The position numbers and the translations under genes are program-made. From a virus: DNA of 64,000 bases. The DNA lies in the IMG/VR virus record IMGVR_UViG_3300010413_002638, positions 48,805-112,804 of that record; one strand, given 5' to 3'. The stretch's first letter is position 1, and the number at the start of each line of letters is the position of its first letter. Positions 10,664 to 57,573 of the stretch are shown here, one piece after another. The notes below the pieces were generated by a model. The model searched no databases. It was given only the letters and a program-made list of their open reading frames with translations, and was not told the DNA's origin.

Positions 10664-12081
10664 TACTCACTCGGCATTTTGACGTTCAACATGTATCCAC
10701 CACGGCTCGACGCCAGGAACCGGTCAAACGAAAGACCCCACAACAATGGGTCCAAGACGTGAATCCCCAGCAGAAAACAAACCAGCGAACCGCCAGCACT
10801 TCCACGTGGACTGAAAGGCCAACCTCGTTTCTTTCCGTACTTAATAAGATCCTTGGTGATAAGGAAGTAGCTAGCGAACCCTTTATCAATAAACCGGTTC
10901 AATTCAATACTAGCCTGTTCCCTATAAGTCACCTCGCGGCCATCGATGAGAAATTTGGTCTTACATTTCTCCAATCCACGCCACCGCAATTCCTTAATGA
11001 CCAGTTTACACAACTCATTATCAGCATCAGATATCTCGGGATATTTGGGAGCAGTATCAACACCAAATTTCTCACAGCGATCGGCAACCATTAGGGTATT
11101 ATCGCACAATTGATCAAAAGTTCGGTTGTCTATGCCGTTACTGTAATTGCCGTTACGGAACGTGGCCCATAATTCTGCCCGCGACTTCATGAATTGTTCA
11201 TCACTATTGACATGGAATAGATCCGGCGAATCGATGGTTGTTTCCTGGGCGACAGCCATCATCAGTTTCTGCAATATGAAGTCAGCTCGATTGAGATAAT
11301 GACAATCATTGGTGAGTACAACAGGAATCTTGAAGAAATCAGCGATAGATATCAACTCACGAAATACCTTATCATCCTCTGGGATGCCAGGCATTTGAAC
11401 TTCAAGATAATAGTCCTGGCCGAATGCTTTCTTGAACTTCTTGATGTATTCGACAGCCGCGTCTAATCTGGCCTTCTTTTTCCGCTCGACCAGAACCTTT
11501 CCTTCTTTGTCGGTGAGCTGTTTATAGCGAAGCTCATGAGACACTGGCCCATTTAGACACCCAGACAACACTATGAGTCCTTCGCGAAACTCGCAAAGTT
11601 TATCGAACCAGATCCTATTGTATTGTGTACTACCCATACCGAATAGACCGGTCTCATAAGCTTGGGTTGTCAATCTTACGAGATTATGAAATCCGGTTTC
11701 ATTCTTGCAAAGGACCGTCAAATGTCTATTGCGCCTGATACGGCTGGAAGTGTCTGGATTTTCTTCCTGCCATTCTTTCGAGCGAAATTTGATTCCTTTT
11801 GCCACCAGTTCTTGTCGTAATGGTTCGAAGTCATTGAAGTAAATTTCGCAACCTGGGATGTACTTCAAGCCGTGCTTCTTGAAGGCGAGATACATGTCAG
11901 GCACGGAAGCCATATGGCCGTGCTCTGTAGCACTCATAGCGGAGTAGCCGCGAGCTGCACATTGCTCGGCATACTGTTCTGGCGTAGCCACGCCGTCCAG
12001 AGCTGAAAAGACGGTGTGATTGTGCAGGTGCACGAAATCAGAAGGGCCGGTATATTCTTCAGGACTGAATTCTTCTGACAT
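10663..12081 (-). CDS. dnaE: DNA polymerase III alpha subunit, N-terminal part (PHP domain plus start of palm)
   Basis: FVHLHNHT, TEHG, GCEIY, RHL, LSGC, TNDCHY and RGSAGGSLVCFLLGI motifs. Confidence 0.95.
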   Translation of the reverse strand: MSEEFSPEEYTGPSDFVHLHNHTVFSALDGVATPEQYAEQCAARGYSAMSATEHGHMASVPDMYLAFKKHGLKYIPGCEIYFNDFEPLRQELVAKGIKFRSKEWQEENPDTSSRIRRNRHLTVLCKNETGFHNLVRLTTQAYETGLFGMGSTQYNRIWFDKLCEFREGLIVLSGCLNGPVSHELRYKQLTDKEGKVLVERKKKARLDAAVEYIKKFKKAFGQDYYLEVQMPGIPEDDKVFRELISIADFFKIPVVLTNDCHYLNRADFILQKLMMAVAQETTIDSPDLFHVNSDEQFMKSRAELWATFRNGNYSNGIDNRTFDQLCDNTLMVADRCEKFGVDTAPKYPEISDADNELCKLVIKELRWRGLEKCKTKFLIDGREVTYREQASIELNRFIDKGFASYFLITKDLIKYGKKRGWPFSPRGSAGGSLVCFLLGIHVLDPLLWGLSFDRFLASSRGGYMLNVKMPSE

Positions 12082-38082: not shown

Positions 38083-38628
38083 ATGGATTCCCATACTACT
38101 GAACATATCAAGCACGTCACGAACACCGAAGTTGTTCGACGCTTGCTTATCCGCTATTTTATGGAAAAGGGATTCACGGAGAGCTTCGACCGGCATCTCT
38201 ATCCTGCCCTTCTCCAAGATCTGACACTTCGTGTTCCACAACTCACCACGAAGATCGAAATAGTTCCCTTTGCCGAAGAAGTGGATACATTCCAGGGTAA
38301 AGCCATCTTGGGTTGGAACCTCTTCGTCCTCGGGAATCAACGGATGTACCTGGGGCAGACCTACCATAACGATTTGCGGAGTCTAGCTCGGCAACTCCAA
38401 ACGGGAATGGTAGTTATTCCTGAGGGAAGTGTTATTAATGCCCGCCGTCAGACGACGCCACGCAGAGTAGTAACTTTCATTACTCGCGTGTTGGAGTCGC
38501 ACGAGGCTGGTTATGTGGATTTGTCGGTTGCTACAAATCCGAAGAAGATTGGCGAGCCATATGCCACGAAGAATAGCCTAATGGGCATGCCGCAGCAATT
38601 TTTTACACGTAGTGGGTACGGCGTGTGA
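38083..38628 (+). CDS. hypothetical protein
   Basis: 181 aa, GGAG RBS. Confidence 0.7.
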   Translation: MDSHTTEHIKHVTNTEVVRRLLIRYFMEKGFTESFDRHLYPALLQDLTLRVPQLTTKIEIVPFAEEVDTFQGKAILGWNLFVLGNQRMYLGQTYHNDLRSLARQLQTGMVVIPEGSVINARRQTTPRRVVTFITRVLESHEAGYVDLSVATNPKKIGEPYATKNSLMGMPQQFFTRSGYGV

Positions 38629-42267: not shown

Positions 42268-43509
42268 TTAGCTAACGGGTGCGAGGCCGTTTAGGTGACA
42301 ATGAATACGGATTTGTTCGTGGCACTGTCCAATTGTTCTGTTGGGGACTCCTAAGAATTCTGCCATGTGGCATTTTCGGGGGTCACCATTTCCATAGATG
42401 TCGCTGAATTCCCGGTAGGTCTGTCCTTGACCGCTCTGAATGTCAAAAACGGCCTTACAGGTACCATCCGGTAAGGCGGCTCGTATTGCCTCCATGACAT
42501 CCCTATTATCTACTACTGCAACATGATCGTCTTGGTCCATTCTAGCTCCCTCAATCGTACGATAACCAATTTGTTTGATGGTAAATCCATTCTCATCAGC
42601 TTCATTTTCCTCCTGAAACATCACGTGCTCTGGCATACTCACGCGCGTGGTCATGCTGCGAGCATTACTATTCTTCAATACGCGAACAGCATTGCTCGTG
42701 GTTTCAATGGCTACCTCCTCCTTCAACGCCCGCTGACGGAGGAGAGCTAGTTCCACCGTGAATTCCGGTGGTGTCAAAAGGCCGACAACATATACTTCGA
42801 AGACTTTCTCGTCATAGTTCTCGGGGTCATAGCGGAAGTCAAGCTTCATCTTCCGGCAGATTGCCAAAAGCTCCTGCAAAATGACTTCGTCCGCCCGAGC
42901 GATAACGGTTCGCGGGGTCTTCCGGTGTTCCGCTCGTTCGTTCTCACGGATTTGTTGGCGAACGTAATTCCAGCCATATTCGCCAAAGAATTTGCTACGT
43001 TGGACCGGATCGTTGATGATCGACATGGGATCATCGTAGAATTTCTCGCCGGTCACATATTTGATGGCCGAACGGCATCGCGGGGGACGTTCATCATCGC
43101 CATATTGGGCAACGATTGCCTGGAACTGCTCATAGGGTAGGAATTGCCCTTTGGTTAGTTCTTCGCTGTCGCCAGGGTCCTTGATCTGAACGTGATCGCA
43201 GTTGGGGCAACGGAGCTGTTGGCGATCGATGGAGGCGACTTTGTTCCGTTTGGTGACGTAGCAGGAGCTACCACAGGCTTGGCAACGGAACTTGTATTTG
43301 CAGTGATAGAAGAGGTTGACGACACCTCGCCATACGGCGATATACCATTCTTGGTCGGCTATGGTGCGGTCGTCCCTGTAATCCCAGCCGATGGTTGCGC
43401 CAAGGCCGCGAATGATGCTGGCACGCTTGGCTTGCATGTCTGGATCGTTGACAATCGCGCGTACGATTTCATCGATTCGAACTCGGTCTTCCTCCGTGAG
43501 ATTCGCCAT
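42268..43509 (-). CDS. divergent sigma-70-like factor with Zn-ribbon insertion
   Basis: ADQEWYIAVWRGV (region 2.2-like), CQAC...CPNC insert, FFGEYGWNYVRQQIR, C-terminal HTH HMAEFLGVPNRTIGQ. Confidence 0.55.
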   Translation of the reverse strand: MANLTEEDRVRIDEIVRAIVNDPDMQAKRASIIRGLGATIGWDYRDDRTIADQEWYIAVWRGVVNLFYHCKYKFRCQACGSSCYVTKRNKVASIDRQQLRCPNCDHVQIKDPGDSEELTKGQFLPYEQFQAIVAQYGDDERPPRCRSAIKYVTGEKFYDDPMSIINDPVQRSKFFGEYGWNYVRQQIRENERAEHRKTPRTVIARADEVILQELLAICRKMKLDFRYDPENYDEKVFEVYVVGLLTPPEFTVELALLRQRALKEEVAIETTSNAVRVLKNSNARSMTTRVSMPEHVMFQEENEADENGFTIKQIGYRTIEGARMDQDDHVAVVDNRDVMEAIRAALPDGTCKAVFDIQSGQGQTYREFSDIYGNGDPRKCHMAEFLGVPNRTIGQCHEQIRIHCHLNGLAPVS

Positions 43510-43684
43510 CGTAATGTTGGCGATACTGCCACGCAGGCACAACTTGGGCAGCTGTCGTTGTAGCGGCATACAAAACTCCTAAACCAACGTTGCACAAAGA
43601 AAAGAGGTATATCTCGTTGATTCGGGAGTTCACCGTATTGGTGAGAACAAGATACACCCCATACACTGTTGCAAAGGAAATACA

Positions 43685-44440
43685 ATGGGTCAATACTGTG
43701 ATAGCCAAAAGCTAGAACATTACTGGTACCATTGGATATTAAGCTCATCCGTGCCAGCTTTGGAAGAATACCGCCGAAGAGGAATACTTTGGACCAAAGT
43801 GATTGGCTTTGCCCAACACGACGGGCAATTGCTACTGTCCAACGGAAAACCATTGCCAGACCCATCTCATCCAACCAGGTTGCATTGTTTGGCATTGGAT
43901 TATCCCCTATTCTTTCGGACAGAGGAAGGAATGCCAACAGCACCTATCTCCAATTTCGGACGGAATTTACGAGAATCGCCCGGTGAGATAAAATTCAAGT
44001 ATAAGAATTTAGCTCGCCGCCAAGCATCTGCGGACGAGGAATTGTTTGCTGAATTGAAGCGACTTGGGTACGCAAAAGAGTACACGACCGACCACAGTTG
44101 GCATAATATGTTGGAGGATATCAGGAATATATGTAATGGTATAGCGATGAAGTTTCGACTTAGCAGCGAAGATGAGCAATTGGACTTAGCGTCCGACGCC
44201 CTTCTCCAGGTCGTAAACAAGCTAGATTCAGGAAGGCTTGTGTACATGCCAGGCCGAGCCCCTGTCTTCAACCTGCTAACCACGACGACTTACAGAATTA
44301 TGTATAGTATTCTGAACAAAAAGAATGGTCAGAAGTATAGCATCCGAAAGCTTATAGATGATGCTGCGGCGGGTGTCTTGCCTGATTCTGGGCGAAGCAT
44401 CCGTGTGCCCACCATCCGATCTCCTATTAGATCACACTAA
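43685..44440 (+). CDS. T4 gp55-like late sigma factor
   Basis: YCDSQKL start; ICNGIAMKF..DLASDALLQVV..APVFNLLTT..YSILNK parallels the gp55 region-2 pattern; no region 4. Confidence 0.55.
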   Translation: MGQYCDSQKLEHYWYHWILSSSVPALEEYRRRGILWTKVIGFAQHDGQLLLSNGKPLPDPSHPTRLHCLALDYPLFFRTEEGMPTAPISNFGRNLRESPGEIKFKYKNLARRQASADEELFAELKRLGYAKEYTTDHSWHNMLEDIRNICNGIAMKFRLSSEDEQLDLASDALLQVVNKLDSGRLVYMPGRAPVFNLLTTTTYRIMYSILNKKNGQKYSIRKLIDDAAAGVLPDSGRSIRVPTIRSPIRSH

Positions 44441-44642: not shown

Positions 44643-44903
44643 ATGTCTACCCAAACCCACAAGGAAGGTCAAGTATCGGAGGAGATCAAGCAAATATTTC
44701 AACAACATCGAGAAGCTATCATCATCACAGTTGACCCCGTTGCAGAATCAGAAGAAACAGCCGTGAACGCTTTCGTCAAAATGCTAGATAAAAATAAAGG
44801 CGGGAAACTGGCCTCCCTGCTGGATAGCATTTTGACCAACCTGAAAGCGACCTATGGCGAAAAACGTGGTGGTATGCCGAGTTCGTCCGCAGCTCATCCG
44901 TAA
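44643..44903 (+). CDS. hypothetical protein
   Basis: AAGGGG RBS; 86 aa. Confidence 0.55.
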   Translation: MSTQTHKEGQVSEEIKQIFQQHREAIIITVDPVAESEETAVNAFVKMLDKNKGGKLASLLDSILTNLKATYGEKRGGMPSSSAAHP

Positions 44904-45789
44904 GCGGACTATCATCAAGACGGTGCCAACTGTCCAGGTCATCGCTAAACCGGCACAGCAGAAAGTCCTAAAACTACAGGATATTCGGCCACCCAGCCCT
45001 CCAATCCCACAGAACTCAGCTGCCGTCGTTCAGCCAAAGAACGTCAAACGCCAGCGGAATATCCGGAAAAAGACCCACGTCCGTTACCAAACTCGCGACC
45101 CACTACCAGGATCACTGGAACGGACTAAGGCTATACAGGGTATGGGTCGTGGTAAGGTCCTCATCATTATTGGCAACGGCCCTTCCATATCAGAAGCGCC
45201 ACTAGACCAATTAGTTGGCGTACCTAATATCGAAATAATGTCAGTCAATCGACCTGACGAACGAATTTGGCCAACTACTTATTGGTCTTTCTTTGACCTC
45301 TCTCAAATGCGACGGCACGAGAAATTGTGGGAGAATTATGAAGGCTATATCTTCAATTCCACAGCTATTCGTCGCCAAAAAGCCAAATCTATTCAATTCA
45401 AGAATATAATGGGCCAAGGTTGGAGTCGAGATCTAACCAAAGGTATCCATATTGGTCGATCTTCTGTCTACGCTTCTATGCAGATAGCTATGTGGATGCA
45501 ATTCGCACATGTTTATGTCTTCGGGTGTGACATGAACCCCGACGGAATAAATGGTCAGTTGCATTTCTATGGTGTGAATCCTGATGTTGAACCCAACATC
45601 AGAGCGCAGCGATTCTTAAAGGAGTCAGAGTTCTACGTTAACGCCGCCGAGGTATTAACGGAAGAAGAACGAGCGAAGTTTACCTTTGCCACTGACTACA
45701 ACCCATGGGATTTTGTACATAAATACAATCAAATGTCGCACAAATCCATGGGTCCCATAATTGAACACGCTGCATCCCTAACACCATGA
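44854..45789 (+). CDS. DUF115/Maf-like protein (GNGPS motif) with basic N-terminal extension
   Basis: IIIGNGPS, SVN, SSVY.SMQIA.WM and VFGCDM motifs. Confidence 0.75.
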   Translation: MAKNVVVCRVRPQLIRKRTIIKTVPTVQVIAKPAQQKVLKLQDIRPPSPPIPQNSAAVVQPKNVKRQRNIRKKTHVRYQTRDPLPGSLERTKAIQGMGRGKVLIIIGNGPSISEAPLDQLVGVPNIEIMSVNRPDERIWPTTYWSFFDLSQMRRHEKLWENYEGYIFNSTAIRRQKAKSIQFKNIMGQGWSRDLTKGIHIGRSSVYASMQIAMWMQFAHVYVFGCDMNPDGINGQLHFYGVNPDVEPNIRAQRFLKESEFYVNAAEVLTEEERAKFTFATDYNPWDFVHKYNQMSHKSMGPIIEHAASLTP

Positions 45790-46319
45790 CAAACAACCAA
45801 TCTGTTCCGCTCGGAAGAGTATATATTGCTTCTAGTCTGCACAACGCCGAGCGAGTAAAACACATCAAACAAAAGCTCGAATCATTGGGCGTAATGGTCA
45901 CTTATGATTGGACCGTGCACGGCCAAGTCTTCGACAAAGAGGAATTGATAAGAATAGCCATAGCAGAGGAACAGGGAGTAAGCGACGCGGACGTGTTCTT
46001 AATGGTATTTCCTGGTCGGACCGGTACGCACGTCGAGTTTGGGCTTGCTCGCGGATTGGGTATTCCGATCGTGCTGTTGGAAGAAGTAGAAGTAGAACAG
46101 AAATCATTTTATTATCTGCCTGGCCTCCATAAGACCCAAACGGAAGAAGAGGCCATCAGAGCAGTGTTGCGTATTTTGCAAGACAAAAATAGCTGGCCAA
46201 GCAGCGTCCCTAAAACCGTGGGTGAAGTGCTGCAACTGGTACCAAAGATCTTAGAATCGCTGAGGAGTGATAATGTCGATTTTCCACAAGCTCGAACTGG
46301 ATGTAATGCAGACCAATGA
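45786..46319 (+). CDS. nucleoside 2-deoxyribosyltransferase / dNMP N-glycosidase family protein
   Basis: VYIASS, GVSDADVFL and GTHVEFGLA (catalytic Glu) motifs. Confidence 0.8.
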   Translation: MTNNQSVPLGRVYIASSLHNAERVKHIKQKLESLGVMVTYDWTVHGQVFDKEELIRIAIAEEQGVSDADVFLMVFPGRTGTHVEFGLARGLGIPIVLLEEVEVEQKSFYYLPGLHKTQTEEEAIRAVLRILQDKNSWPSSVPKTVGEVLQLVPKILESLRSDNVDFPQARTGCNADQ

Positions 46320-46965
46320 ATTGGAAGATGCTGCTAAAATAGCGGTCAAGTATAACTTCCAGGCTATGGTCGTACACCCGCTGATTGTCACCGATGCCAT
46401 TTTCCTACGTGGTCGAACTCAGGGTAGGTATAAGATAATCACACCAGTTGATTGGCCCAAAGGCGAGAACTTTGGTATGGTCAAATTACGTGGTTTGTCC
46501 TCCGACGCCCTGGACGTCGATGGTTTCGAGATATTATTGACCGGCGATAAAACTCTGGTCGAGACCCGCAACGAAGCCAAGGTGTTGACCAATTTCATCA
46601 AGCAACAATTATCAGAATTGGTCGAAGTGCGATTTGTACTTGGCACGTCCCTGCGGACACCGGAAAATGTCGCTCACATGATGGAAGCGTTCAAGGATGT
46701 GAGAATTCCAGCTTATATCCGCAACGACCACCATCTAAAGTTGCAAGTGAGCAAGGCCAACGCCGACACGCATAATGCCTTTATGGACAAATTGTTCGAG
46801 ATATTTCGGGCACCGGTCAAGCTGAGTGGCAATATTAATACTGTCAGAGCGATTACCTCTTGTGATCGTGCACAACGGTTTGCCGTAAATATCAATCAAG
46901 CACGGACAATAATCAAAGAAGTCCACCAGCAACCAGAAGAATTGAAGTCAATTCTAGATGCTTGA
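46273..46965 (+). CDS. deoxyribose-phosphate aldolase (DeoC)-like TIM barrel, divergent
   Basis: KYNFQAMVVHP, ITPVDWPKG, DGFEILL and VKLSGNINT motifs; the Schiff-base Lys position reads YIRND. Confidence 0.6.
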   Translation: MSIFHKLELDVMQTNELEDAAKIAVKYNFQAMVVHPLIVTDAIFLRGRTQGRYKIITPVDWPKGENFGMVKLRGLSSDALDVDGFEILLTGDKTLVETRNEAKVLTNFIKQQLSELVEVRFVLGTSLRTPENVAHMMEAFKDVRIPAYIRNDHHLKLQVSKANADTHNAFMDKLFEIFRAPVKLSGNINTVRAITSCDRAQRFAVNINQARTIIKEVHQQPEELKSILDA

Positions 46966-47302
46966 AGCAATTTGCCCGGAGTGTGGCATAACCAATTCTT
47001 TCGACGAATCACAAGTAATCTACGAATTTGACTTCGTATATGTTCTTTGTTATAATTGCGGTAGCACGATAAAAATACAATGCGAGACAATAATCCCAGG
47101 AAGGTGTTCCGCAGAAATAAGTGCTCCCGTATTAGAAATTGGTGAAATTGTAAAAATAACTAATAGAGAACACGCCTGGTATGACGAAATCGCAATAATC
47201 CGCGCCAAGAAATTCAAGCATTATCGCATCGAAATACACGGTCAATTAATTTGGGTTCCAGAACACTGGGTAATATCCGATGAGCCTGATGACATTGATT
47301 AA
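46958..47302 (+). CDS. Zn-ribbon plus SH3/KOW-like hypothetical protein
   Basis: CPECG...CYNCG; EIGEIVKI. Confidence 0.55.
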   Translation: MLEAICPECGITNSFDESQVIYEFDFVYVLCYNCGSTIKIQCETIIPGRCSAEISAPVLEIGEIVKITNREHAWYDEIAIIRAKKFKHYRIEIHGQLIWVPEHWVISDEPDDID

Positions 47303-47651
47303 CGATCTTGGTGACAACGCCGATCTTCTGGTAAGGAGCGACGCTTGGCTCGAAAATGAGCGTCGATCCACCGCAGCAGAATTAGACCGATGCTGCAACG
47401 AACTGCGAGCCATTCAACTCGCCCAACGGATCAAGCGTGCGCTGCAACAAAAGAATATAGTAGCAGTGCAAGAATTAATCCATGACATAGATGGTAACAT
47501 ACAAGATATAGTAGTAAGAATACTAGATCTGCCCAAGGCTATCCAAAAGCTGAATGGCAAAGTCCCACAAGACACTCTAGACGCCATCAATTCTATGGCC
47601 CAAATCAAGGGCTGGCGGTCCGACGGCTACGACGTCGATCTCTTTCTCTAA
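47280..47651 (+). CDS. hypothetical helical protein
   Basis: 123 aa ORF. Confidence 0.55.
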   Translation: MSLMTLINDLGDNADLLVRSDAWLENERRSTAAELDRCCNELRAIQLAQRIKRALQQKNIVAVQELIHDIDGNIQDIVVRILDLPKAIQKLNGKVPQDTLDAINSMAQIKGWRSDGYDVDLFL

Positions 47652-47752: not shown

Positions 47753-48937
47753 ATGTTGAGGACCAACGAAGTTGGTGGCCGAGTAGTAGTAACCGCTGAT
47801 GGTGGAGCCGGAAGTAGTGGCAAAGGAGCCTTCAACGCCTGGCTCGCTGACAAATATCCATTCGATGTTGCCACCAACAATTGGGCCACTAACGCCGGTC
47901 ACTTCGTAGAATGGATCGACAAAGATGGCAACAGACAACGAGTGCTCAACCAGCACATCTGCTCTGCCTTCGTCAACCCAAACACCGAGCTGCACATCAA
48001 CCCCGGTGCATCCCTCGACATCAAAACACTGTTGGACGAAATCGAGACACTAGAAAATCTCGGCTTCGAGATCAAAGACCGATTGAGTATCCATCCTCTG
48101 GCCAACGTCATTACGGAAGAAGACAAACTACAAGAAAAGGAAATCATCAAGAGCGGCAGTACCTTCAAGGGATGCGGAGCGGCCTTGGCCCGTAAAACAC
48201 TGCGAATTCCAGGACAAAAACTAGCTCGCGATTATGACGAGCTGCGGCCATTCATCGCAGATCGCACTCTTGACGTTCTCAACGCAATCGAAAAGGGTGC
48301 CAAAGTCCTCGTCGAAGGTGCTCAAGGTATCGACCTCGACATCAATTTTGCCGAATTCCCGCACGTCACCAGTCGTCAAACTCATCCAACACAACTCATG
48401 GCCGACGCCGGGCTCCCTTGTCAAGCTGTTACCAACACCATCATCAACCTGCGGACCAATCCTATCCGTATCAGCAACGTATCAGCGGCCAACGAAAATG
48501 AGCTGTGCTATACCGGCAATTACTGGGACGCCAAGGAAATCACCTGGGAAATCGTGGCAGAAAGAGCCGGATATGCCACATTCGAAGAATTCGTGAAGGA
48601 ATACGAATTTGCTATGATGACCTCGGTGACCAAAAAAGTCAGGCGAATCTTCGAATTCCCCAAGGTCCGTATGGAATTCCTGCATGCCCTGGTCGGCGGA
48701 AACCTGCCAGACAGCAGCGTTCTTTACAGCCTGAACTTCATGAATTTCATCGACCGAACGGTACGCGGCGTCAAGACCGAAGAAGAACTACTGACAGAAA
48801 AAGTTCGGGATTGGTTGCATACGAACCTCTCCGCCTCGGTGAGAAGCAAGTTGCGCTGGATTAGAACCGGTCCAGAACACACCGAAATCGTGGAACTTGT
48901 CGATTTCGCAGCCAAAGAAGCCAGCGTTCCAGTCTAG
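47753..48937 (+). CDS. purZ: adenylosuccinate synthetase family, PurZ-type (2-amino-dAMP pathway)
   Basis: GSSGKG (Ser at the PurA catalytic Asp of GDEGKG), NAGH, EGAQG, TSR, RTNPIRI, TSVTKKVRR, and NFMN in place of PurA TKLD. Confidence 0.8.
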   Translation: MLRTNEVGGRVVVTADGGAGSSGKGAFNAWLADKYPFDVATNNWATNAGHFVEWIDKDGNRQRVLNQHICSAFVNPNTELHINPGASLDIKTLLDEIETLENLGFEIKDRLSIHPLANVITEEDKLQEKEIIKSGSTFKGCGAALARKTLRIPGQKLARDYDELRPFIADRTLDVLNAIEKGAKVLVEGAQGIDLDINFAEFPHVTSRQTHPTQLMADAGLPCQAVTNTIINLRTNPIRISNVSAANENELCYTGNYWDAKEITWEIVAERAGYATFEEFVKEYEFAMMTSVTKKVRRIFEFPKVRMEFLHALVGGNLPDSSVLYSLNFMNFIDRTVRGVKTEEELLTEKVRDWLHTNLSASVRSKLRWIRTGPEHTEIVELVDFAAKEASVPV

Positions 48938-48968: not shown

Positions 48969-49769
48969 ATGATCGAAAATCTCAAGGTCGCTGCGTATCT
49001 AGAAGACGCCGGTGAAGATCCGGCGTCAGCTTGCAAGACCATCAAGGATGCCGGTATAAACTATGTCATAATCCGGCATGTTTGGACATCCAATATCAAG
49101 GATTTATCGGATAGCGGCTGCGTCAAACTGCGCAAGATAATGTCCGATAACGGCGTAGCACCCGCCGCCATCTTATCCACAATAAGTGATGTTCCCGCCT
49201 CGGATTTGCCCAAAATAGATGACAAAACCGTAGACAGAACATTTAATCTTGCCAAATATTTTGGCGTGCCCATGATAGGGCTCACATGTGGTCTCAAGAC
49301 GGCTAATCAAGCTGATAAACAAATTGACCAATGGCTATACCGAATCACTAGCCAGGCCGCTTCTCTCAACATCAATTGTCTGATCGAGACGACCACCAAA
49401 AGCCACATATATGCTGCTGGTGAACTAGCTATGCTGTTAACCAAACACAAAACAATCAAATTAATATACGACCCAGCTCAACTTATCATTAGACAAAACA
49501 TCGATCCATTCATAAAATATTGGACTTTATTGAAGCAGTATGTCCGCGCCATCGATGTGCGCGACTACAAGATCGGACGTGGCTTCAAGCCAGCAGGACA
49601 CGGTGATACACACATTATCCGAACAGCGATGGATGCGATCAATTCAAATTATAATGGGTGGTTCTTTTTTGAGCCGTCTTTGGGCCGAAAACACGGTACT
49701 GCACAATCCAAAAGCGATGTTTTCAAAATGGCATTCACAGCCTTTAAGGACGCTCTTGGTCAAAGTTAA
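48969..49769 (+). CDS. xylose isomerase-like TIM barrel (sugar phosphate isomerase/AP endonuclease 2 superfamily)
   Basis: LIE, LIYDPAQ, AIDVRD, PAGHGD and YNGWFFFEP motifs. Confidence 0.75.
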   Translation: MIENLKVAAYLEDAGEDPASACKTIKDAGINYVIIRHVWTSNIKDLSDSGCVKLRKIMSDNGVAPAAILSTISDVPASDLPKIDDKTVDRTFNLAKYFGVPMIGLTCGLKTANQADKQIDQWLYRITSQAASLNINCLIETTTKSHIYAAGELAMLLTKHKTIKLIYDPAQLIIRQNIDPFIKYWTLLKQYVRAIDVRDYKIGRGFKPAGHGDTHIIRTAMDAINSNYNGWFFFEPSLGRKHGTAQSKSDVFKMAFTAFKDALGQS

Positions 49770-49780
49770 AGGGGATAATT

Positions 49781-49993
49781 ATGCCGATCAATTTCAATGA
49801 GACTATCCAACGGATCAAGCAAGCTGGCTCTACGGGTGTCCGCTCCGTCCCCATGCCCAATCAACCGATCGATGGTGACTACCAGATCGAAATTCTGACA
49901 GAGGGCAACTGGACACCGCTCGTCACCGGTATCAATAAAAAGACAGCCGAAGACATTATTAGCCAAGCCACAAACCGAGTGATCCTTGGATGA
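49781..49993 (+). CDS. small hypothetical protein
   Basis: AGGGG RBS; 70 aa. Confidence 0.65.
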   Translation: MPINFNETIQRIKQAGSTGVRSVPMPNQPIDGDYQIEILTEGNWTPLVTGINKKTAEDIISQATNRVILG

Positions 49994-50418
49994 AACGGAA
50001 AGTCACCTCCGTACTAGAATTGGCACGGTATAAAGTAGGCACAGTGGCCTACTGGTTGGCACTACGTACCAACGCTCCCGTGCCAGATCTAAGAGAGGAA
50101 GACGTCTGGCTAACCAACGTACACCCAAAACAACTATACAAAGGACCATACAAGAAACTCTGGCCGACTCACGCCAAACTACCAAAGCTACATCACGTAG
50201 ATTTCAACACTCTCGTGACAGTACTCGTATCAGAACTCTGCGTAGAAGAATTTCGAGTTGTCGAAATAATCAGAAGCAACGACACCGGAGAATTCTTCTA
50301 CAGCAACGAAGATGACGAATGGATGCCAGAAACTAATCTGTTCGACACCGTGACAGCAGCCCGCAAAGAACGATCACGCATCCTCGGCATGATACGCAAA
50401 TGGGCCAAAGACAATTAA
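49990..50418 (+). CDS. hypothetical protein
   Basis: Coupled start. Confidence 0.65.
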   Translation: MKRKVTSVLELARYKVGTVAYWLALRTNAPVPDLREEDVWLTNVHPKQLYKGPYKKLWPTHAKLPKLHHVDFNTLVTVLVSELCVEEFRVVEIIRSNDTGEFFYSNEDDEWMPETNLFDTVTAARKERSRILGMIRKWAKDN

Positions 50419-50960
50419 AGCTTTCTAGCCATAATCATGCCCACACTATCCGGCTTCGTCAGATACGCCTCGATCTGCCATTCTGACGAACTCTCCAAGT
50501 AAGGCCGCAATAATTTCGCCTTCACCGAGAACACACCGGCTTCTCGCACGTCCATATCCCAATCATGCATCCCATAGATAGCACCCTGTCGTAAGCGGGG
50601 TGCTATTAACAAGAAATCATTAAGATTAAGTTCCGGCTCTTCTGGCCCGTCGTTGAATACAAAATCCGGGATGATATTAGTACCCAACAAATGATTAATC
50701 ATATCTGTTGAAGCCATATAATGACACTCAACAATGTTTCGCCACGCACCTGAATAAATCCCCCTAGCCTCTTCGTAGAAGACCCGGTTCGTTTCACACG
50801 TGTATAGCTTGCCAGCCCCCAATTGTCGTAGTGCCGTTGCTATTTGATAAGTTGAACCACCACCTTTCCAGGTACCGATTTCTAATACTACTTGCGGCTT
50901 GACGCGCAAGACAGTATCAAAGAGCAACTTGCGTTCTGCGGGATATAATTGACCTTCCAT
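50415..50960 (-). CDS. class I SAM-dependent methyltransferase
   Basis: VLEIGTWKGGGST, DFVFNDG and MHD motifs. Confidence 0.85.
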   Translation of the reverse strand: MEGQLYPAERKLLFDTVLRVKPQVVLEIGTWKGGGSTYQIATALRQLGAGKLYTCETNRVFYEEARGIYSGAWRNIVECHYMASTDMINHLLGTNIIPDFVFNDGPEEPELNLNDFLLIAPRLRQGAIYGMHDWDMDVREAGVFSVKAKLLRPYLESSSEWQIEAYLTKPDSVGMIMARKL

Positions 50961-51673
50961 TATTGCCTCTTCGCGATAAAATATCCGTCGTTCTCATACA
51001 ATATCTCCATACCACTCTTGAACTCGTTCAGTACAACGGACTTTACTCGAATTGGGTGGCCCACATCGTACAAATTATCGATGTTTAGATCATCGTAAGT
51101 TCGCTCACCCATGATGATCAAGCCGCCAGGCCGTAGAGCTAATTTAATATTTCGCAACACTGCGGCCACATCACGAACGTGCTCAAGCACATTGATGCAG
51201 ATTATCGTATCGAACTCTTCCAACCGTCGCAAATTCTCTGCCGGAAGCGGAACAAGACGAGGACTTGGTCGTAAATTCCAGTAAGCACAGTTGGGATGAT
51301 GCTTATAGTGCTCAATGAGTGGATCAGCTAACGTTATAGAACGTGCTGTATGTCCTTTCGACAGGATGAATCTTGTCTGTGTAAACGGGCCGCAACCAAC
51401 TTCTAGTATATCGCCTAGATTATCCGGTAAGACGTGGTAATCATTAAAGAGTGCTGCGTGTTCTGTGTCGCGATCAGATGATGCGTCTCTGGCATGCTGC
51501 AACCAAGTAGCTAATTCATACGCTTGCGCTTTCTTCCAGCGTTCATCGTCTACTTTGACGATACCATTCGTGTCGTTCCAATACTTAGCATCACTCTCTG
51601 CTCGCAGAGCATCTGTAGCGTCTTGTCCGCGTCGTACGTCAACTGGTGAACCGATCCAAATAGGATTATCCAT
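50960..51673 (-). CDS. class I SAM-dependent methyltransferase
   Basis: ILEVGCGP, FDTIICINVLEHV and LRPGG motifs. Confidence 0.9.
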   Translation of the reverse strand: MDNPIWIGSPVDVRRGQDATDALRAESDAKYWNDTNGIVKVDDERWKKAQAYELATWLQHARDASSDRDTEHAALFNDYHVLPDNLGDILEVGCGPFTQTRFILSKGHTARSITLADPLIEHYKHHPNCAYWNLRPSPRLVPLPAENLRRLEEFDTIICINVLEHVRDVAAVLRNIKLALRPGGLIIMGERTYDDLNIDNLYDVGHPIRVKSVVLNEFKSGMEILYENDGYFIAKRQ

Positions 51674-51711: not shown

Positions 51712-51990
51712 ATGAACCAAGGCTGTATGCGATTAGGCGGGATGACGCCCGCTGAATGTTGTTATGATTTACCAACGACATTTCACATATCAAAGATCTT
51801 GGAATCTGAAAATTTGCTGACATTCTTTTGTAATCATAACGACTTCACGGGCAAAGAGCTAGTATGGGAGTCTAAAGAATCGATTAGGATAGATGGCAGA
51901 TCGATCCCGCTTCATTGTTCCCCATCTTATCGTACCAGCTGGTGTACTTTCACTATACGGCCTCTGACTCTGTTCGAGGACAACATATGA
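51712..51990 (+). CDS. hypothetical protein
   Basis: GGAG RBS; stop coupled to the next start. Confidence 0.45.
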   Translation: MNQGCMRLGGMTPAECCYDLPTTFHISKILESENLLTFFCNHNDFTGKELVWESKESIRIDGRSIPLHCSPSYRTSWCTFTIRPLTLFEDNI

Positions 51991-52613
51991 GATCAGCGAT
52001 AATATTAAGCGGCCAACTAAGAAATTTTGACGAATGCTACCCATCACTCAAAGAGCATATTCTCGACCACAATGATTGCCATATCTACATGCACACCTAT
52101 CTGGACACCGAGCCAGAAAAACTGCAACAAGCGATATCTTTGTATCAACCACAAAAACTGTTACTAGAACAACCAGAAAAAGATTTCTCCATTTGTGAAC
52201 AGTGTGGACCAGACAGAGAACCAATGTACTGGATGTGGCGAAACGTGCGGGTCGCTTTCTGTTTGATCCCCGAGTATTACGAATGCATCGTCAAAGCACG
52301 TTATGACTTGAAGTACACACAACCAATTGTCTTTGCAGACCATGATATGGCCGCTATAAACATACCCTCTGGTGGTAACTTCCTGAACGGCATTAATGAT
52401 CTTTTCGCGTTTGGCTCCCCCACAAACATGGAATATTATTGTTCCATGATCGACGTAATCGACCAATATGTCTCAGAAGAAGGAATTACATGCCATCCAG
52501 AAACGTTGCTTAGGCATCATCTTCGCGACAAACAAGTAGACAGGCCAGTGTTTCCTATTATTCTCCGCGACGTTATTATGACGGACCACTATCCCAATGA
52601 CAACCCAAATTAA
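51987..52613 (+). CDS. putative glycosyltransferase-like protein (SGQLR...RYD...ND.FAFG family)
   Basis: AIILSGQLR, KARYD, NDLFAFGS and HPETLL motifs. Confidence 0.65.
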   Translation: MRSAIILSGQLRNFDECYPSLKEHILDHNDCHIYMHTYLDTEPEKLQQAISLYQPQKLLLEQPEKDFSICEQCGPDREPMYWMWRNVRVAFCLIPEYYECIVKARYDLKYTQPIVFADHDMAAINIPSGGNFLNGINDLFAFGSPTNMEYYCSMIDVIDQYVSEEGITCHPETLLRHHLRDKQVDRPVFPIILRDVIMTDHYPNDNPN

Positions 52614-53142
52614 AATGATCGTCTTAGACGTAGACGGCGTAATGACCGACGGTAAGAAGTACTACGACCGGAAAGGTGCAGTAGTCGTCAAGTCCTTCTG
52701 CGACAAAGATTGGACTGCTATCAAAAGGTTTCGTGCGATCGGCATCAACGTCGTCTGCATTACCGGAGACGGATTTAATGCCGCAATCCTCGCCAATCGA
52801 AACATCCCAGTAATCATTTGCCGCACCGACAATGCTCATACTGACAAATCCAACTACCTGGCTGGCATCATTGAAGAATATGATTGCACTTATGACGAAG
52901 TCTGCGTAGTCGGCGACGATCTATTTGATCTAAAGCTGATGATGATGGTTAAGCATCGTTTCTGTCTGCTAGATTCGCCATCTGTGGTTAAGCAATACTG
53001 CGACGTGCTTGGATGCAAAGGTGGAGAAAATGCGATCGCTGTCTTGTTTGATCGCTTAGAAGGATTTGAATTAATTCCTAAGGTTCCCTGGCAAGAAGCC
53101 ATGGACAAGATTTATGAAATAGATGCCAAAGAAAGATTCTGA
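52597..53142 (+). CDS. KdsC-like HAD phosphatase
   Basis: LDVDGVMTDG, ITGD, VGDDLFD and KGGE motifs. Confidence 0.85.
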   Translation: MTTQIKMIVLDVDGVMTDGKKYYDRKGAVVVKSFCDKDWTAIKRFRAIGINVVCITGDGFNAAILANRNIPVIICRTDNAHTDKSNYLAGIIEEYDCTYDEVCVVGDDLFDLKLMMMVKHRFCLLDSPSVVKQYCDVLGCKGGENAIAVLFDRLEGFELIPKVPWQEAMDKIYEIDAKERF

Positions 53143-53807
53143 TGCTGCTGCACGACGGCACATGCGCGATCATAATAAGTGGTTATTTGCGAGATTTCGT
53201 AAAATACTTCCCGTCATTCAAGGAGTGTATTCTCGACCACAACAACTGTCATATTTATATGCAAATATATGCCTCCGAATTGGACAGAATACAAAAAGCA
53301 GTACAACTATACAAGCCACAAAGGATATTGGTAGAAGAACCCATAAAAGACTTCGTTTTTGAAGGAGAATGGAATACCTATACAAACCGAGAGGGATATT
53401 ATTGGCAATGTAAGAATCTGAAGACTGCGTTCGGGCTAGTACCAGATTATTACCCCTGCGTAGTTCGAACACGATACGATTTGAAATATACCTCACCAAT
53501 AAAGTTCCTGAGTTTTAACCTACACCACATACATATCCCAGCCCATAGGATAGGATTATATGGTTACCAAGGAAATGGCATCACAGATGTTTTTGCATTT
53601 TCTTCCTACGAAAACATGCGATATTATACTTCTCTCTATGATTATATCAATCATTACGTGAAACAAGGGGTGGAATGCACACCCGAAGTGCTACTGATGC
53701 ATCATTTAAGAGACAAATCTTTAGTTAGACCAATTTTTCCCATCTTTCTGAGAGACATGTGTATGACCACGCCGCACGGTCATCACGAATTTTTGGTGGT
53801 AACATGA
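53142..53807 (+). CDS. paralog of 51987-52613 (glycosyltransferase-like)
   Basis: IISGYLR, RTRYDLKY, TDVFAF and PEVLL motifs. Confidence 0.65.
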   Translation: MLLHDGTCAIIISGYLRDFVKYFPSFKECILDHNNCHIYMQIYASELDRIQKAVQLYKPQRILVEEPIKDFVFEGEWNTYTNREGYYWQCKNLKTAFGLVPDYYPCVVRTRYDLKYTSPIKFLSFNLHHIHIPAHRIGLYGYQGNGITDVFAFSSYENMRYYTSLYDYINHYVKQGVECTPEVLLMHHLRDKSLVRPIFPIFLRDMCMTTPHGHHEFLVVT

Positions 53808-54961
53808 AGAAATACAATCTCGTACTCCCGATCTCCGGCAGAGCCCAACGCTTTATCGATGCTGGCTACAAAATGCCCAAACCACTCATTCTGGTCAAGG
53901 ACAAGCACGTCATCGACTTGGCGCTGGAATCAATGGACATCTCGGATTGTAATTTAATCTTCATAGTGAGACTCGACCACATCTATGATTTCAGTATCGA
54001 TCAGATACTAAAACAGAAGTACGGAGATGATATAACTATAGTCGTAGTTGATAGGATAACCAGAGGTGCACTTGAAACCTGCACCCTTGCTGCTGAGCAT
54101 ATCAACAATGACATCCCACTCATCATTTACACGCCAGATGTCAGCTTTTTCCCGCAATTCAACCCCAACGCTATCAGCGAAGAAGCCGATGGATTTCTAC
54201 TAACTTTCGCCGCCAATAGCCCTTCTCACAGCTATTCTGTGATTAATGACGGCATTGTATCCAAAGTGGCCGAGAAAGAAGTAATTTCCAATGACGCCAA
54301 TGTTGGCATTTATCATTTCAAATCTGGAAGCCTATTCCTGAAATATGCTAACGTTATGCTCGAGCAGAACATAACGGCTAAAAATGAATTCTATATTGCC
54401 CCAATTTACAATCTGATGATAGCCGATGGCTTGATGGTAAAAGCATTCGGCGTCGAAAAAATGTACGTTCTTGGCACGCCAGACTCATTCCAATTCTTCT
54501 GCAACCATATCATGCGAAAGCCATTCGACAAGCCAATCGCCCTAGCAGCAGATCATTCCGGATACGCTCAAAAAGAATCTACCAAAAGATTAATGGATAA
54601 AGATGGTATTCAATATATTGACGTCGGCACTTATGTCAACAAGTCCTGTGATTATGTTGATTATCTTAGTCAATCTGTGGCCCTCATCAGAGACAATCAT
54701 TGCAACTTTGCGATATCGTTCTGTCGATCTGGACAAGGAATGAACATTGCGGCAAACAAACATGATGGAATTATCTCAGCTCTCGTATTCGACGCACATA
54801 GTGCCGAATATGCTATCCGCCATAACTGTTGTAATCACTTCGCAATACCCGCCAGAAACAGCAACGCATTTCTCATGGCGGAAGTACTAGAAATGCTGAA
54901 GAAGCATTCGTTCGAAGGCGGAAGACACTACACGAGACTACAAAAGTTCTTATGTTTATAG
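53804..54961 (+). CDS. fusion of a sugar-phosphate nucleotidyltransferase and an RpiB/LacAB isomerase
   Basis: ISGRAQRF..PKPLI and EFYIAP motifs; C-terminal AADHSG, CRSGQGMNIAANK, HN and FEGGRH. Confidence 0.88.
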   Translation: MKKYNLVLPISGRAQRFIDAGYKMPKPLILVKDKHVIDLALESMDISDCNLIFIVRLDHIYDFSIDQILKQKYGDDITIVVVDRITRGALETCTLAAEHINNDIPLIIYTPDVSFFPQFNPNAISEEADGFLLTFAANSPSHSYSVINDGIVSKVAEKEVISNDANVGIYHFKSGSLFLKYANVMLEQNITAKNEFYIAPIYNLMIADGLMVKAFGVEKMYVLGTPDSFQFFCNHIMRKPFDKPIALAADHSGYAQKESTKRLMDKDGIQYIDVGTYVNKSCDYVDYLSQSVALIRDNHCNFAISFCRSGQGMNIAANKHDGIISALVFDAHSAEYAIRHNCCNHFAIPARNSNAFLMAEVLEMLKKHSFEGGRHYTRLQKFLCL

Positions 54962-55557
54962 ATCACCAGCAGAAGTTCCTCTTCGTAGCAGTCCCGAAGA
55001 CGGCAAGCGGGTCAGTCCATTTTTATTTCAACCAGCCGCCGCTCTACGATGGCTTCCATGTCTATTTCATGGAAAAGTATCATTACCCATATCGGTGGAT
55101 TCTAACCGACCATCCAGAAGCTGCTGATTATTTCAGTTTCGGGTTCACCAGAAATCCGTGGGACAGAATGGTATCATCTTGGTTTGATTTCACCAATAGC
55201 CAAGGACATAGAAAGATATGGAGCGAAAGGCTAACATTATACAAAGACTTCCAACAATTCATAATGGAATTCCCGAATAGCGAATGGGCACAAGAGATCC
55301 ATTTCCAACCGGCATCCTGGTACTTAGGGCATGGAACAGAACAGGTTGATTTCACAGGCCGGTACGAAAGCATCGATGAAGACTTCGGACACATCCTACG
55401 GAAACTAGGCAGGCCAGAATTCGCCCTCACAAGCAAACAAAAGCTTAGAAAATCGGCCAGAAACGCCGATTATCACCAATATTACACCAATGAAATGATA
55501 GAGATAGTCGGGAACCATTTTCATGATGACATTGTCAACTTCGGATATCAATACTAA
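54952..55557 (+). CDS. sulfotransferase family 2
   Basis: VPKTASGS, RNPWDRMVS, HFQP and GRYE motifs. Confidence 0.88.
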   Translation: MFIDHQQKFLFVAVPKTASGSVHFYFNQPPLYDGFHVYFMEKYHYPYRWILTDHPEAADYFSFGFTRNPWDRMVSSWFDFTNSQGHRKIWSERLTLYKDFQQFIMEFPNSEWAQEIHFQPASWYLGHGTEQVDFTGRYESIDEDFGHILRKLGRPEFALTSKQKLRKSARNADYHQYYTNEMIEIVGNHFHDDIVNFGYQY

Positions 55558-56371
55558 TGCCTGTATTCTACTATCGCATGTCTTCATACAACCAAACGAA
55601 CTACACAAAAGACAAATAGTCGAATTGGCCGCTAAGCACTATCGCTTGCACAATCCCGATAGCTATCTTATCCTAACCGGCCATGGATTAATGCCATCAC
55701 CGGCAACAGTAGAGCTTTGCGATTTCGTTTACTGGGATACAAAAATCGATCGGCGAGAAATAGGCGTCGGACATCCCAAATTAGTCAATGTCGGTATCAA
55801 ACACGCAATGGAGAAAGGGTATAAGTGGTTATTTAAATGCCGAGCGGATGGCGTTATTCTTCGTTCTGGCATTCTCACCTATTGCCACCAATTGCTGGAA
55901 AATAAGCAAATTCTGCTAACCCAACAAACAGAGTTTGCCAGACCTCGTGCTGGCGATTTGTTCATGTATGGCCCCATAGATTTTCTGCAACAGTGCTGGG
56001 ATATTACAACGTGGTATCCAACAGACACTGGCCTCACCAGCTTCGCCAAGAATATTATGCTAACTACGGGTGAGACAGATTGGGTCCGATGCCTATTGGG
56101 CCATGCAGCGTTCGTTGATATTTATAACATCAAATGGATTGACTTGTATTACAACTGGAATACATTACACCAAAGAAGCGCTGATATTCTTAAGAATCAG
56201 CTAGATGACTTCGAGAAATATTTATGGGGCACGAAAGAAGGTGCTCACACTTTCGACGCTACTGGGGATATGACAGCGTATATCGGCCCCATTATTTGTG
56301 AAAAAGATTGGCGAAAGAGGTTGAATGAAAATCATAGCACATCGCGGAAACTTGATGGGTCCAAATCATGA
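55523..56371 (+). CDS. putative glycosyltransferase-like protein
   Basis: FKCRAD motif; lies inside the glycan cluster. Confidence 0.5.
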   Translation: MMTLSTSDINTNACILLSHVFIQPNELHKRQIVELAAKHYRLHNPDSYLILTGHGLMPSPATVELCDFVYWDTKIDRREIGVGHPKLVNVGIKHAMEKGYKWLFKCRADGVILRSGILTYCHQLLENKQILLTQQTEFARPRAGDLFMYGPIDFLQQCWDITTWYPTDTGLTSFAKNIMLTTGETDWVRCLLGHAAFVDIYNIKWIDLYYNWNTLHQRSADILKNQLDDFEKYLWGTKEGAHTFDATGDMTAYIGPIICEKDWRKRLNENHSTSRKLDGSKS

Positions 56372-56846
56372 GGCCGAAAACACAACCAACGCTATCGATG
56401 ATTGCATTGGCAGAGGCTACGACGTCGAAATAGACGTTTACGTTTCAGCAGGCACGATCTGGCTGGGGCATGATAACCGACATAACCAGGTCGAGTTAGA
56501 ATATTTGCTCGCTCGCAAAGACAAATTGTGGGTGCATGCGAAGAATATCGTCGCGGCAGAATTGTTATCTGATACAGATCTCCACTGGTTTTGGCATGAT
56601 CGAGATGCAATGACTATAACCAGCAAGGGTGTTATTTGGTGCCACTACGCTTTTATCAAGAATGGTATTACTATACTCCATACTGCCAGAGAAATAGATC
56701 ATCTTAAACCTAATATAAATGGCATCGTGCCAAACATAGGTGGTATCTGCACAGATTATCCAACGCTGGCGAGGTTGGTAATAAATGAAAATATCCGGCC
56801 TGACAATAATCAGAAATGCGTTCACGAACGGATACCCTATCGCTGA
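56325..56846 (+). CDS. glycerophosphodiester phosphodiesterase-like protein
   Basis: IAHRGN, EN, DVEIDV, LGHD, HAKN and GICTDY motifs. Confidence 0.85.
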   Translation: MKIIAHRGNLMGPNHEAENTTNAIDDCIGRGYDVEIDVYVSAGTIWLGHDNRHNQVELEYLLARKDKLWVHAKNIVAAELLSDTDLHWFWHDRDAMTITSKGVIWCHYAFIKNGITILHTAREIDHLKPNINGIVPNIGGICTDYPTLARLVINENIRPDNNQKCVHERIPYR

Positions 56847-57573
56847 GGTTATCGACAACCTCGCCCTAATCTCAGACGAAATAATCGTCTGTGACGGATA
56901 TTCAACAGACGGCACCACTCAATATCTGCAAAGCCGAAACGATATTACCCTATACCAAGATCGTTGGAATCTTCAATCCAAAAATGGCCTCGAATTCGCC
57001 AATATCACCAACTGCGGCGTAGAACGATGCAGCGGGGATTATGTCTTCTATCTGCAAGCGGATGAAATAATGCACCCATCAGATACGCTCTTATTGCGAG
57101 ATCTGATAGAAGAGGATCGATATAACGCTATTTTCTGCGATTTCTACCATATCCGGTATGATTTCGATTACGTGCTCACTGGCGGCTACAAAAGTGCCAT
57201 TAGAGCGATCAGAAACAAATGCGGTATCTCTTCAGAATACGATGGTTTCAGCTTCTTGGGAAACATTGTTCCATCTTTTCATTCTGGGTTGATGGTATAC
57301 CATTTTGGTTATGTCTTCTTGCGGAATATCTTCCGCAAAATGATTAATCACGCCGACTGCTTCTACCATGAAGCTAAGAATTACCATCGCCGGAAAGAGC
57401 TGGCTCTTGATTATCTCGCCAAATTGGATAATGGCGAAACCCTAGATCCCCTAGAGGTACAACGAGTGTTGGAGCCAGAATATTCACTCCACAAACACAA
57501 CACAGTCATTCCCGCATGTATGGAACGGCTGCGAGGAGCGATTTCCTACACTCTGCCGGAAAGAGAAGCATGA
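56785..57573 (+). CDS. glycosyltransferase family 2
   Basis: CDGYSTDGT, YLQADE and YHFGYV motifs. Confidence 0.85.
   Translation: MKISGLTIIRNAFTNGYPIAEVIDNLALISDEIIVCDGYSTDGTTQYLQSRNDITLYQDRWNLQSKNGLEFANITNCGVERCSGDYVFYLQADEIMHPSDTLLLRDLIEEDRYNAIFCDFYHIRYDFDYVLTGGYKSAIRAIRNKCGISSEYDGFSFLGNIVPSFHSGLMVYHFGYVFLRNIFRKMINHADCFYHEAKNYHRRKELALDYLAKLDNGETLDPLEVQRVLEPEYSLHKHNTVIPACMERLRGAISYTLPEREA

Follow-up and report, generated by a model that had tools for sequence, protein, structure and literature searches.

A divergent PurZ-type gene in a conserved module of jumbo-type phages and its possible role in making 2-aminoadenine DNA

We analyzed a 64,000-nucleotide stretch of viral DNA (below, the window), which covers positions 48,805 to 112,804 of the IMG/VR record IMGVR_UViG_3300010413_002638, with a focus on the gene at window positions 47753-48937. 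Judged from its residues and its place in a phylogenetic tree, the 394-aa product of this gene (the query) is a divergent ATP-type member of the PurZ clade. The explanation we favor, with a probability of about 60%, is that the gene codes for a working PurZ-type enzyme and that the phage, apparently a jumbo phage, puts 2-aminoadenine (Z) into its DNA, either fully or in part.

47753-48937, plus strand: PurZ-type succino-aminodeoxyadenylate synthase homologue, 394 aa (PF00709, PHROG 1211, match to phiVC8 PurZ, tree position, residues)

The open reading frame (ORF) is intact, begins with ATG and has a Shine-Dalgarno sequence AGGAG 9 nt upstream of the start. A preliminary description of this DNA had reported a PurA fold with four unusual motifs, and each of them was found in the translation: GSSGKG at residues 20-25, RTNPIRI at 234-240, TSVTKKVRR at 290-298 and NFMN at 328-331. 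The protein matches the Pfam family PF00709 of the adenylosuccinate-synthetase fold (E=2e-25) and PHROG 1211, '2-aminooxy adenylosuccinate synthetase' (E=9e-43). Its top PDB match is the PurZ of phage phiVC8 (6FKO, E=6.8e-28), followed by the PurA of P. horikoshii (1.7e-24), the 'PurA-like adenylosuccinate synthetase' 7VF6 (4e-19) and the PurZ of phage S-2L (4.5e-17). The family match is far beyond chance.

For a residue-level comparison, the query was aligned with four characterized PurZ proteins, three PurZ0 or PurZ0-like proteins and E. coli PurA. Positions separating PurZ from PurA were taken from structures and from a metaGPA study (bioRxiv 10.1101/2025.10.22.683976). We observed that the PurZ-defining residues are kept: S14, T262, P233, Y244, W252 and P144 of phiVC8 PurZ correspond to S21, T290, P237, Y257, W265 and P153 of the query. 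The catalytic Asp13 of PurA is Ser21 here, as it is S14 in phiVC8. The adenine-stacking motif N294-F295-x-N297-Y298 of phiVC8 appears as N328-F329-M-N331-F332, with a conservative change of Tyr to Phe, and this NFMNF stands where PurA has the guanine motif TKLD, or (T/N)KxD. Among 22 relatives there was no variation at S21, T290, P237, W265 and N328-F329. In PurZ0 the base motif (LSFADQ, LTMLDQ) contains an Asp, as does the TKLD of PurA, while the query has no Asp in it; the query is therefore predicted to be of the ATP type. A PurZ0 identity was rejected on three grounds, namely GSSGKG in place of GSEAKG, NFMNF with no Asp, and a position outside the PurZ0 clade.

The tree was built with IQ-TREE from 65 rows under LG+C20+F+G4, with supports given as ultrafast bootstrap / Shimodaira-Hasegawa-like approximate likelihood ratio test (SH-aLRT), with E. 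coli PurA as the root. In it, 57 rows formed a clade (support 100/100) that united all the metagenomic phage proteins, the query included, with all canonical PurZ proteins, i.e., those of phiVC8, S-2L, PMBT28 and SH-Ab 15497. The PurZ0 proteins, which formed their own clade (100/100), and plasmid-borne short PurA-like proteins fell outside. One half of the PurZ clade (87/83) holds the canonical PurZ, a protein of Flavobacterium phage MaF61 and a set from jumbo phages that we call group B. The other half (93/89) holds a protein of Bacillus phage vB_BpsS-140, those of 63-kb phages with DnaE, and group A, the family to which the query belongs. The PurZ-type identity claimed in the preliminary description is thus borne out by both residues and phylogeny; a tree had been proposed there as a check, and in it the query went with PurZ and apart from PurZ0 and E. 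coli PurA (archaeal PurA was left out).

A phmmer search against 1.84 billion representative proteins (50%-identity clusters) gave 2354 matches at E<=0.001, with 86 of them at E<=1e-30. Of these 2354 clusters, the best 150 had Ser at the position of Asp13 in 138 cases, i.e., in all with a readable P-loop, and Asp in none; NFx(N/Q)(Y/F/W/H) was present in 84 of the same 150. Some PurZ-like proteins from metagenomes (P0115, P0119, P0120, P0113; about 510 aa) carry a fused NUDIX domain (PF00293) or acetyltransferase domain, and the NUDIX domain could act as MazZ or DatZ. The short PurA-like paralogues outside the clade lie on plasmids of Agrobacterium, Burkholderia, Sinorhizobium and Rhizobium (L051-L054). 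Three of these paralogues have the P-loop Ser, two of the three with an N-terminal P-loop kinase-like fusion, and the paralogue with Asp is situated between folE and purB.

The complete IMG/VR record (G000) is linear and 112,804 bp long, with the window as its last 64 kb. CheckV estimated its completeness at 32%, therefore the phage should be roughly 350 kb in size. The gene was also found at 60-64% identity on IMG/VR contigs of 234-388 kb (G001-G004), two of which (G002 and G003) are 99-100% complete, and, in group B, at 30-34% identity on many other large contigs, including one of 355,825 bp with terminal repeats (G005). The jumbo-type genome proposed earlier agrees with both the completeness estimate and the sizes of the relatives. 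A separate group is made of complete phages of about 63 kb (G006-G012, loci L012-L018), which have a PurZ-like gene, a Dut gene and a full-length DnaE coded by a single gene (about 983 aa); no PolA, NDT or HD genes were found in them.

In the window, DnaE is split between two genes, with three small ORFs between them:

6624-9368, minus strand: DnaE C-terminal part, 914 aa (PF07733 positions 100-260, E=5e-18)
10663-12081, minus strand: DnaE N-terminal part, 472 aa (PF07733 positions 12-98, E=1e-21)

The two-piece DnaE (about 475 aa plus 910-940 aa) was present in all complete or near-complete jumbo relatives, as was a PolA-like gene coding for about 400 aa; some short jumbo fragments had no split DnaE, no PolA-like gene, or neither. 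In the record under study the PolA-like ORF (397 aa, G000:43218-44411, minus strand) lies 4.4 kb ahead of the window start and aligns to the C-terminal two-thirds of PF00476 only. It was rejected as a DpoZ, with 20.7 bits on NF038380 against a cut-off of 500. The preliminary description named DnaE as the visible polymerase. This holds for the window, where the enzyme is in two pieces, but DnaE is not the sole polymerase-like gene of the phage, given the PolA-like ORF just outside.

The PurZ-type gene is part of one co-linear block common to about 20 jumbo loci. In the window the other members of the block are, in order, with the PurZ-type gene placed between the 123-aa ORF and the 266-aa barrel:

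38083-38628, plus strand: strongly conserved ORF, 181 aa; no family or PDB match
42268-43569, minus strand: strongly conserved ORF, 433 aa, with a four-Cys zinc-ribbon-like segment; no family or PDB match
43685-44440, plus strand: conserved protein, 251 aa, syntenic in 19 loci; no Pfam, PHROG or PDB match
44854-45789, plus strand: MptE-like domain protein, 311 aa, syntenic in 19 loci (PF01973 at 7.8e-4, below the cut-off)
45786-46319, plus strand: NDT-superfamily, nucleotide N-glycosidase-like protein, 177 aa (PF05014, 4e-7)
46267-46965, plus strand: triosephosphate-isomerase (TIM) barrel of the deoxyribose-phosphate-aldolase (DERA) fold, 232 aa (AlphaFold2 model and Foldseek; confidence score pLDDT 92)
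46958-47302, plus strand: small conserved ORF, 114 aa, with positional homologues in 9 jumbo loci; no family match
47280-47651, plus strand: small conserved ORF, 123 aa, with positional homologues in 13 jumbo loci; no family match
48969-49769, plus strand: TIM barrel of the sugar-phosphate isomerase/epimerase type, 266 aa (PF01261, 3e-10)
49990-50418, plus strand: conserved ORF, 142 aa, syntenic in 13 loci; no family match

The preliminary description had not linked the PurZ-type gene to the NDT-fold, DERA-fold and TIM-barrel genes around it. The NDT-fold gene is 1.4 kb upstream of the PurZ-type gene in the window and 1-2.5 kb away from it in about 18 jumbo loci. In a profile search against the PDB, the NDT-like protein matched the CMP N-glycosidases BcmB (8.5e-6), BlsM and MilB first and NDTs after them. 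Its AlphaFold2 model (pLDDT 87) had MilB, BcmB, NDT and DNPH1 as the top Foldseek matches. The candidate catalytic Tyr and Glu, Y13 and E84, are invariant. No Dut gene was found beside the NDT-like gene or anywhere in the 112.8-kb record.

For the 232-aa protein no family match was obtained at the sequence level. The Foldseek matches listed for its model were all DERAs except two titled only 'aldolase' (best template-modeling, TM, scores 0.76-0.82, E=6e-12). By strand register, the beta7 Lys of DERA is probably kept as K185. The gene of the 266-aa barrel is located immediately 3' of the PurZ-type gene in 17 loci, and its atlas neighbours by feature and by structure are all PF01261 (TM 0.88). 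The atlas neighbours of the 311-aa protein are viral MptE-like clusters. PDB profile searches with the 251-aa, 433-aa and 181-aa proteins returned nothing informative; the 251-aa protein has the invariant stretch PGRAPVFNLLTTT.

Just past the module we observed two class I S-adenosylmethionine-dependent methyltransferases and a run of sugar-nucleotide genes (50415-51673, minus strand, and 51915-57573, plus strand), with a nucleotidyltransferase-RpiB fusion at 53759-54961 within the run. This content suggests a glycan or sugar-modification cluster.

The module kept a PurZ while the PurZ itself was exchanged. The window's flanking genes are 46-69% identical to those of the group B locus L029 (one small ORF, 41%) and only 28-45% identical to those of L008-L011. 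The PurZ-type protein of the window shows the opposite trend, with 61% identity to L008-L011 and 31% to L029. In a tree of the DERA-fold neighbour, the window groups with L029, L026, L031 and L028, while L008-L011 stand apart as a clade with 100% support. Since PurZ and its flanking genes have opposite closest loci, comparison of these sequences indicates that, at least once, a member of the other PurZ subclade took the place of the PurZ gene in situ. The presence of two PurZ subclades in one module slot argues that both do the same job, and such a swap speaks for strong selection for keeping a PurZ in the module.

The preliminary description stated that none of the known Z partners lies in the window. 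This is correct and can be extended: HD/DatZ, YfbR-like, MazG, DUF550, DUF5664 and dUTPase genes were found neither in the window nor in the entire 112.8-kb record, whose remainder had been proposed as a place to look for HD-domain dATPase or MazG-like genes. Hidden Markov model (HMM) searches for HD_3, DUF550 and MazG gave nothing above cut-off in the complete relatives G002, G003 and G005. Also, tblastn at E<=0.01 in G000, G002 and G005, with queries from phiVC8, S-2L, PMBT28, SH-Ab 15497, Ghobes and Wayne, detected no DatZ, MazZ, DUF5664-DUF550, DpoZ or DmtZ; the only genes returned were those of the Dut family and PurZ itself. Dut-family genes were present in every complete jumbo genome, with two apiece in G002, G003 and G017. 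No PurB or guanylate kinase gene was found in any jumbo genome of the set, and the host would have to carry out the later steps of the pathway, as it does for known Z phages. The canonical Z phages likewise rely on the host lyase.

From these observations we infer the substrates of the enzyme, the part of host enzymes and the presence of Z in DNA, as follows. The PurZ-type enzyme would join deoxyguanosine monophosphate (dGMP) and aspartate, with the use of ATP, into N6-succino-2-amino-2'-deoxyadenylate. This product would pass to the adenylosuccinate lyase and nucleotide kinases of the host for conversion to the triphosphate dZTP, and 2-aminoadenine would enter the jumbo-phage DNA wholly or in part. 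Instead of the DatZ/MazZ/DpoZ set, the conserved neighbours would more likely remove the adenine nucleotides. The NDT-fold enzyme may split deoxyadenosine monophosphate (dAMP) into adenine and deoxyribose 5-phosphate, and the sugar phosphate might then be processed by the DERA-fold and sugar-phosphate-isomerase barrels. The dAMP may be supplied from dATP by a Dut-family deoxynucleoside triphosphatase, such as found in the complete relatives. Replication would be done by the split DnaE, by the short PolA-like enzyme, or by both.

Besides the family membership, residues and tree position, two observations speak for this explanation. Group B, which is closer to the canonical PurZ (87/83), shares the module slot with the query's subclade. 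Moreover, an NDT-fold gene lies near PurZ, and the NDT family has been linked to Z pathways experimentally. The link was made in 2025-2026 (bioRxiv 10.1101/2025.10.22.683976; PMC12884076): NDT genes are enriched on dZ-resistant contigs (bioRxiv 10.1101/2025.10.22.683976), and DmtZ hydrolyses dAMP and moves the deoxyribose 5-phosphate onto the Z base (PMC12884076). With this published role of the NDT family, an adenine purge via an N-glycosidase is an already known idea, while the DERA-fold and isomerase partners are new relative to the published Z pathways.

Several points weigh against this explanation. All canonical Z helpers are absent from the record and from the complete relatives (356-388 kb). 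Phe12 of phiVC8 is Ala19 in the query and throughout its subclade, Gly256 is Ala269, Ser273 is Glu301, and about 20 extra residues are inserted ahead of T290, adjacent to the substrate loop. The NCBIfam PurZ model NF038379 is the best-scoring one, yet its 158.7 bits fall well short of the cut-off, 300. The NDT-like protein has no likeness to DmtZ (Ghobes gp53, Wayne N-terminal domain) in blastp (E>1), and its nearest solved relatives are CMP N-glycosidases. In the 232-aa protein the position of the Schiff-base Lys of DERA, at the end of beta6, appears to hold a near-invariant R152. Finally, the tree had no archaeal PurA among its rows, E. coli PurA and the plasmid-borne short PurA-like proteins being used instead. 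In another reading, close to the alternative raised in the preliminary description of a PurZ variant for another modified purine, the enzyme would have PurZ-like chemistry but would work with the NDT-fold glycosidase, the DERA-fold barrel, the sugar-phosphate isomerase and the MptE-like protein to make a modified purine nucleotide or nucleoside, rather than to replace A by Z throughout the DNA; the product would be, e.g., a 2-aminoadenine derivative at the ribonucleotide level or some small molecule directed against host defence. In favor of it are the conservation of a co-linear module of 9-11 genes while every known Z helper is missing, the subclade's loss of Phe12 and its insertion, the score under the PurZ cut-off, and the origin of MilB, BlsM and BcmB, the nearest relatives of the NDT-like protein, in nucleoside-antibiotic pathways. 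Still, we consider it rather unlikely: Ser21, Thr290 and the ATP motif are exactly as in PurZ that uses dGMP and ATP, the gene is interchangeable with a subclade nearer to canonical PurZ, the flanking genes belong to DNA replication and repair (an SbcCD-like pair, helicase, DnaE), and phages are not known to have a small-molecule pathway of this kind. It is very improbable that the gene is an ordinary PurA, i.e., an auxiliary metabolic gene for raising the output of AMP from inosine monophosphate (IMP) with GTP. Membership in PF00709, the match to P. horikoshii PurA and the score of the archaeal-type PurA model NF003295 (146 bits vs 158.7 for the PurZ model) would fit such a gene, but Asp13 is Ser in every family member, (T/N)KxD is replaced by NFxNF, Asp does not occur at the Asp13 position among the best 150 of the 2354 clusters, and the protein sits inside the PurZ clade. 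This reading was rejected on residues and phylogeny.

An active PurZ with Z at only part of the adenines would be expected if no enzyme destroys dATP and the polymerases are not selective. In E. coli, PurZ, MazZ and DatZ with no matching polymerase gave only 9-28% substitution (PMC12944874), and here DatZ and DpoZ are absent. However, dA nucleotides could be removed through the NDT-fold gene, which is conserved, and through the Dut paralogues of the complete relatives, and we judge a strictly partial substitution quite unlikely. Counts of palindromic sites also bear on this question. In G000, seven of the eight 6-bp palindromes made of G and C only are absent, each being expected about 19 times (observed/expected ratio, O/E, 0.07), as are GTCGAC, GAGCTC, GGATCC, ACGCGT and AGGCCT; GCGC has an O/E of 0.39. 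Palindromes with two A/T letters are partly avoided, with five absent entirely, and those with 4-6 A/T letters are near expectation (O/E 0.93 and 0.84). SalI, whose site is GTCGAC, has been reported to cut dZ-DNA (PMC12944874). The remaining avoidance of sites with two A/T letters would suit a partial substitution, but it does not separate Z from non-Z genomes: proven Z phages have the same gradient, but it is also seen in lambda, P22 and ICP1, which are non-Z phages, with sites containing A/T somewhat more depleted. The palindrome pattern is at most weakly suggestive as a proxy of Z, and we do not count it as evidence. The counts do indicate strong restriction pressure on unmodified G/C sites in G000.

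The incorporation of Z by this phage could be extended, as a tentative and possible scenario, to the entire clade of freshwater-type jumbo phages of 230-390 kb. Their Z-DNA would be made with none of the known helpers, adenine would be purged by the N-glycosidase-like enzyme, a re-tooled DERA-fold protein and the isomerase, and the two-piece DnaE would copy the Z-genome. If true, an enzyme of the DnaE type would for the first time be seen to replicate Z-DNA, and the Z genomes would be the largest known.

Compared with known systems, the query has in common with the PurZ of phiVC8 (6FKO/6FM1), S-2L (7ODX), PMBT28 and SH-Ab 15497 the fold, the Ser in place of Asp13 and the equivalent of Thr262. 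It also shares with these proteins the motifs GSTxKG, TSR, RxxPIR, TVTKKxRR and LNFxN(Y/F), and the 100/100 clade. However, it is only 26-32% identical to them, differs in the Ala for Phe12, in the insertion before Thr290 and in the score below the NCBIfam cut-off, and is about 30-50 residues longer than the PurZ of phiVC8, S-2L and PMBT28, while its length is near that of SH-Ab 15497 PurZ (387 aa). The short PurA of the archaeal type (P. horikoshii, 2D7U/5K7X; NF003295) is a short form of the fold as well, with HMM scores comparable to the query, but it keeps Asp13 and the guanine-binding motif, and the query has neither. The genomes differ too. Canonical PurZ genes reside in phages of 40-50 kb with DpoZ or PrimPol, whereas the query belongs to a jumbo phage of about 350 kb with a split DnaE, and it has no adjoining datZ or mazZ, unlike the canonical systems.

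The PurZ0/DmtZ pathway is similar in having an NDT-superfamily enzyme near the synthetase, a Dut gene (here in the complete relatives), and no DatZ or MazZ. On the other hand, the query synthetase is on the PurZ (ATP) side and not on that of PurZ0, the NDT-like protein has no detectable similarity to DmtZ, and Dut is not adjacent and not present in the fragment. Nothing in that pathway corresponds to the DERA-fold and TIM-barrel partners. To our knowledge, Z-DNA has been proven in small phages only (about 40-50 kb), which have either PurZ with DatZ, MazZ and DpoZ or PurZ0 with DutZ and DmtZ. Our literature search found no paper that links PurZ with jumbo phages or DnaE. If these jumbo phages do carry Z-DNA, the base substitution works in genomes of roughly eight times that size, Z-DNA can be copied by DnaE, a replicase of the bacterial type, and there is a third, undescribed way of excluding adenine.

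Two cultured phages bring the comparison outside metagenomes. The closest cultured relative is Bacillus phage vB_BpsS-140 (MH884512, 55 kb), which shares the query's half of the PurZ clade; its protein (L043:5902-7023) is 36% identical to the query and has the motifs GSEGKG and LNFANY. The PurZ-clade gene of Flavobacterium phage MaF61 (PQ858689, 168 kb; L047:7968-9311) has GSSGKG and MNFVNY. The neighbours of these genes differ from those of the query, being an HNH endonuclease and RecA in vB_BpsS-140 and scaffold and terminase genes in MaF61, and no annotated DatZ or MazZ is near either gene. In the literature searched, we found no report on the DNA composition of MaF61 or vB_BpsS-140. As both phages are in culture, they lend themselves to a test for Z-DNA beyond the small canonical phages.

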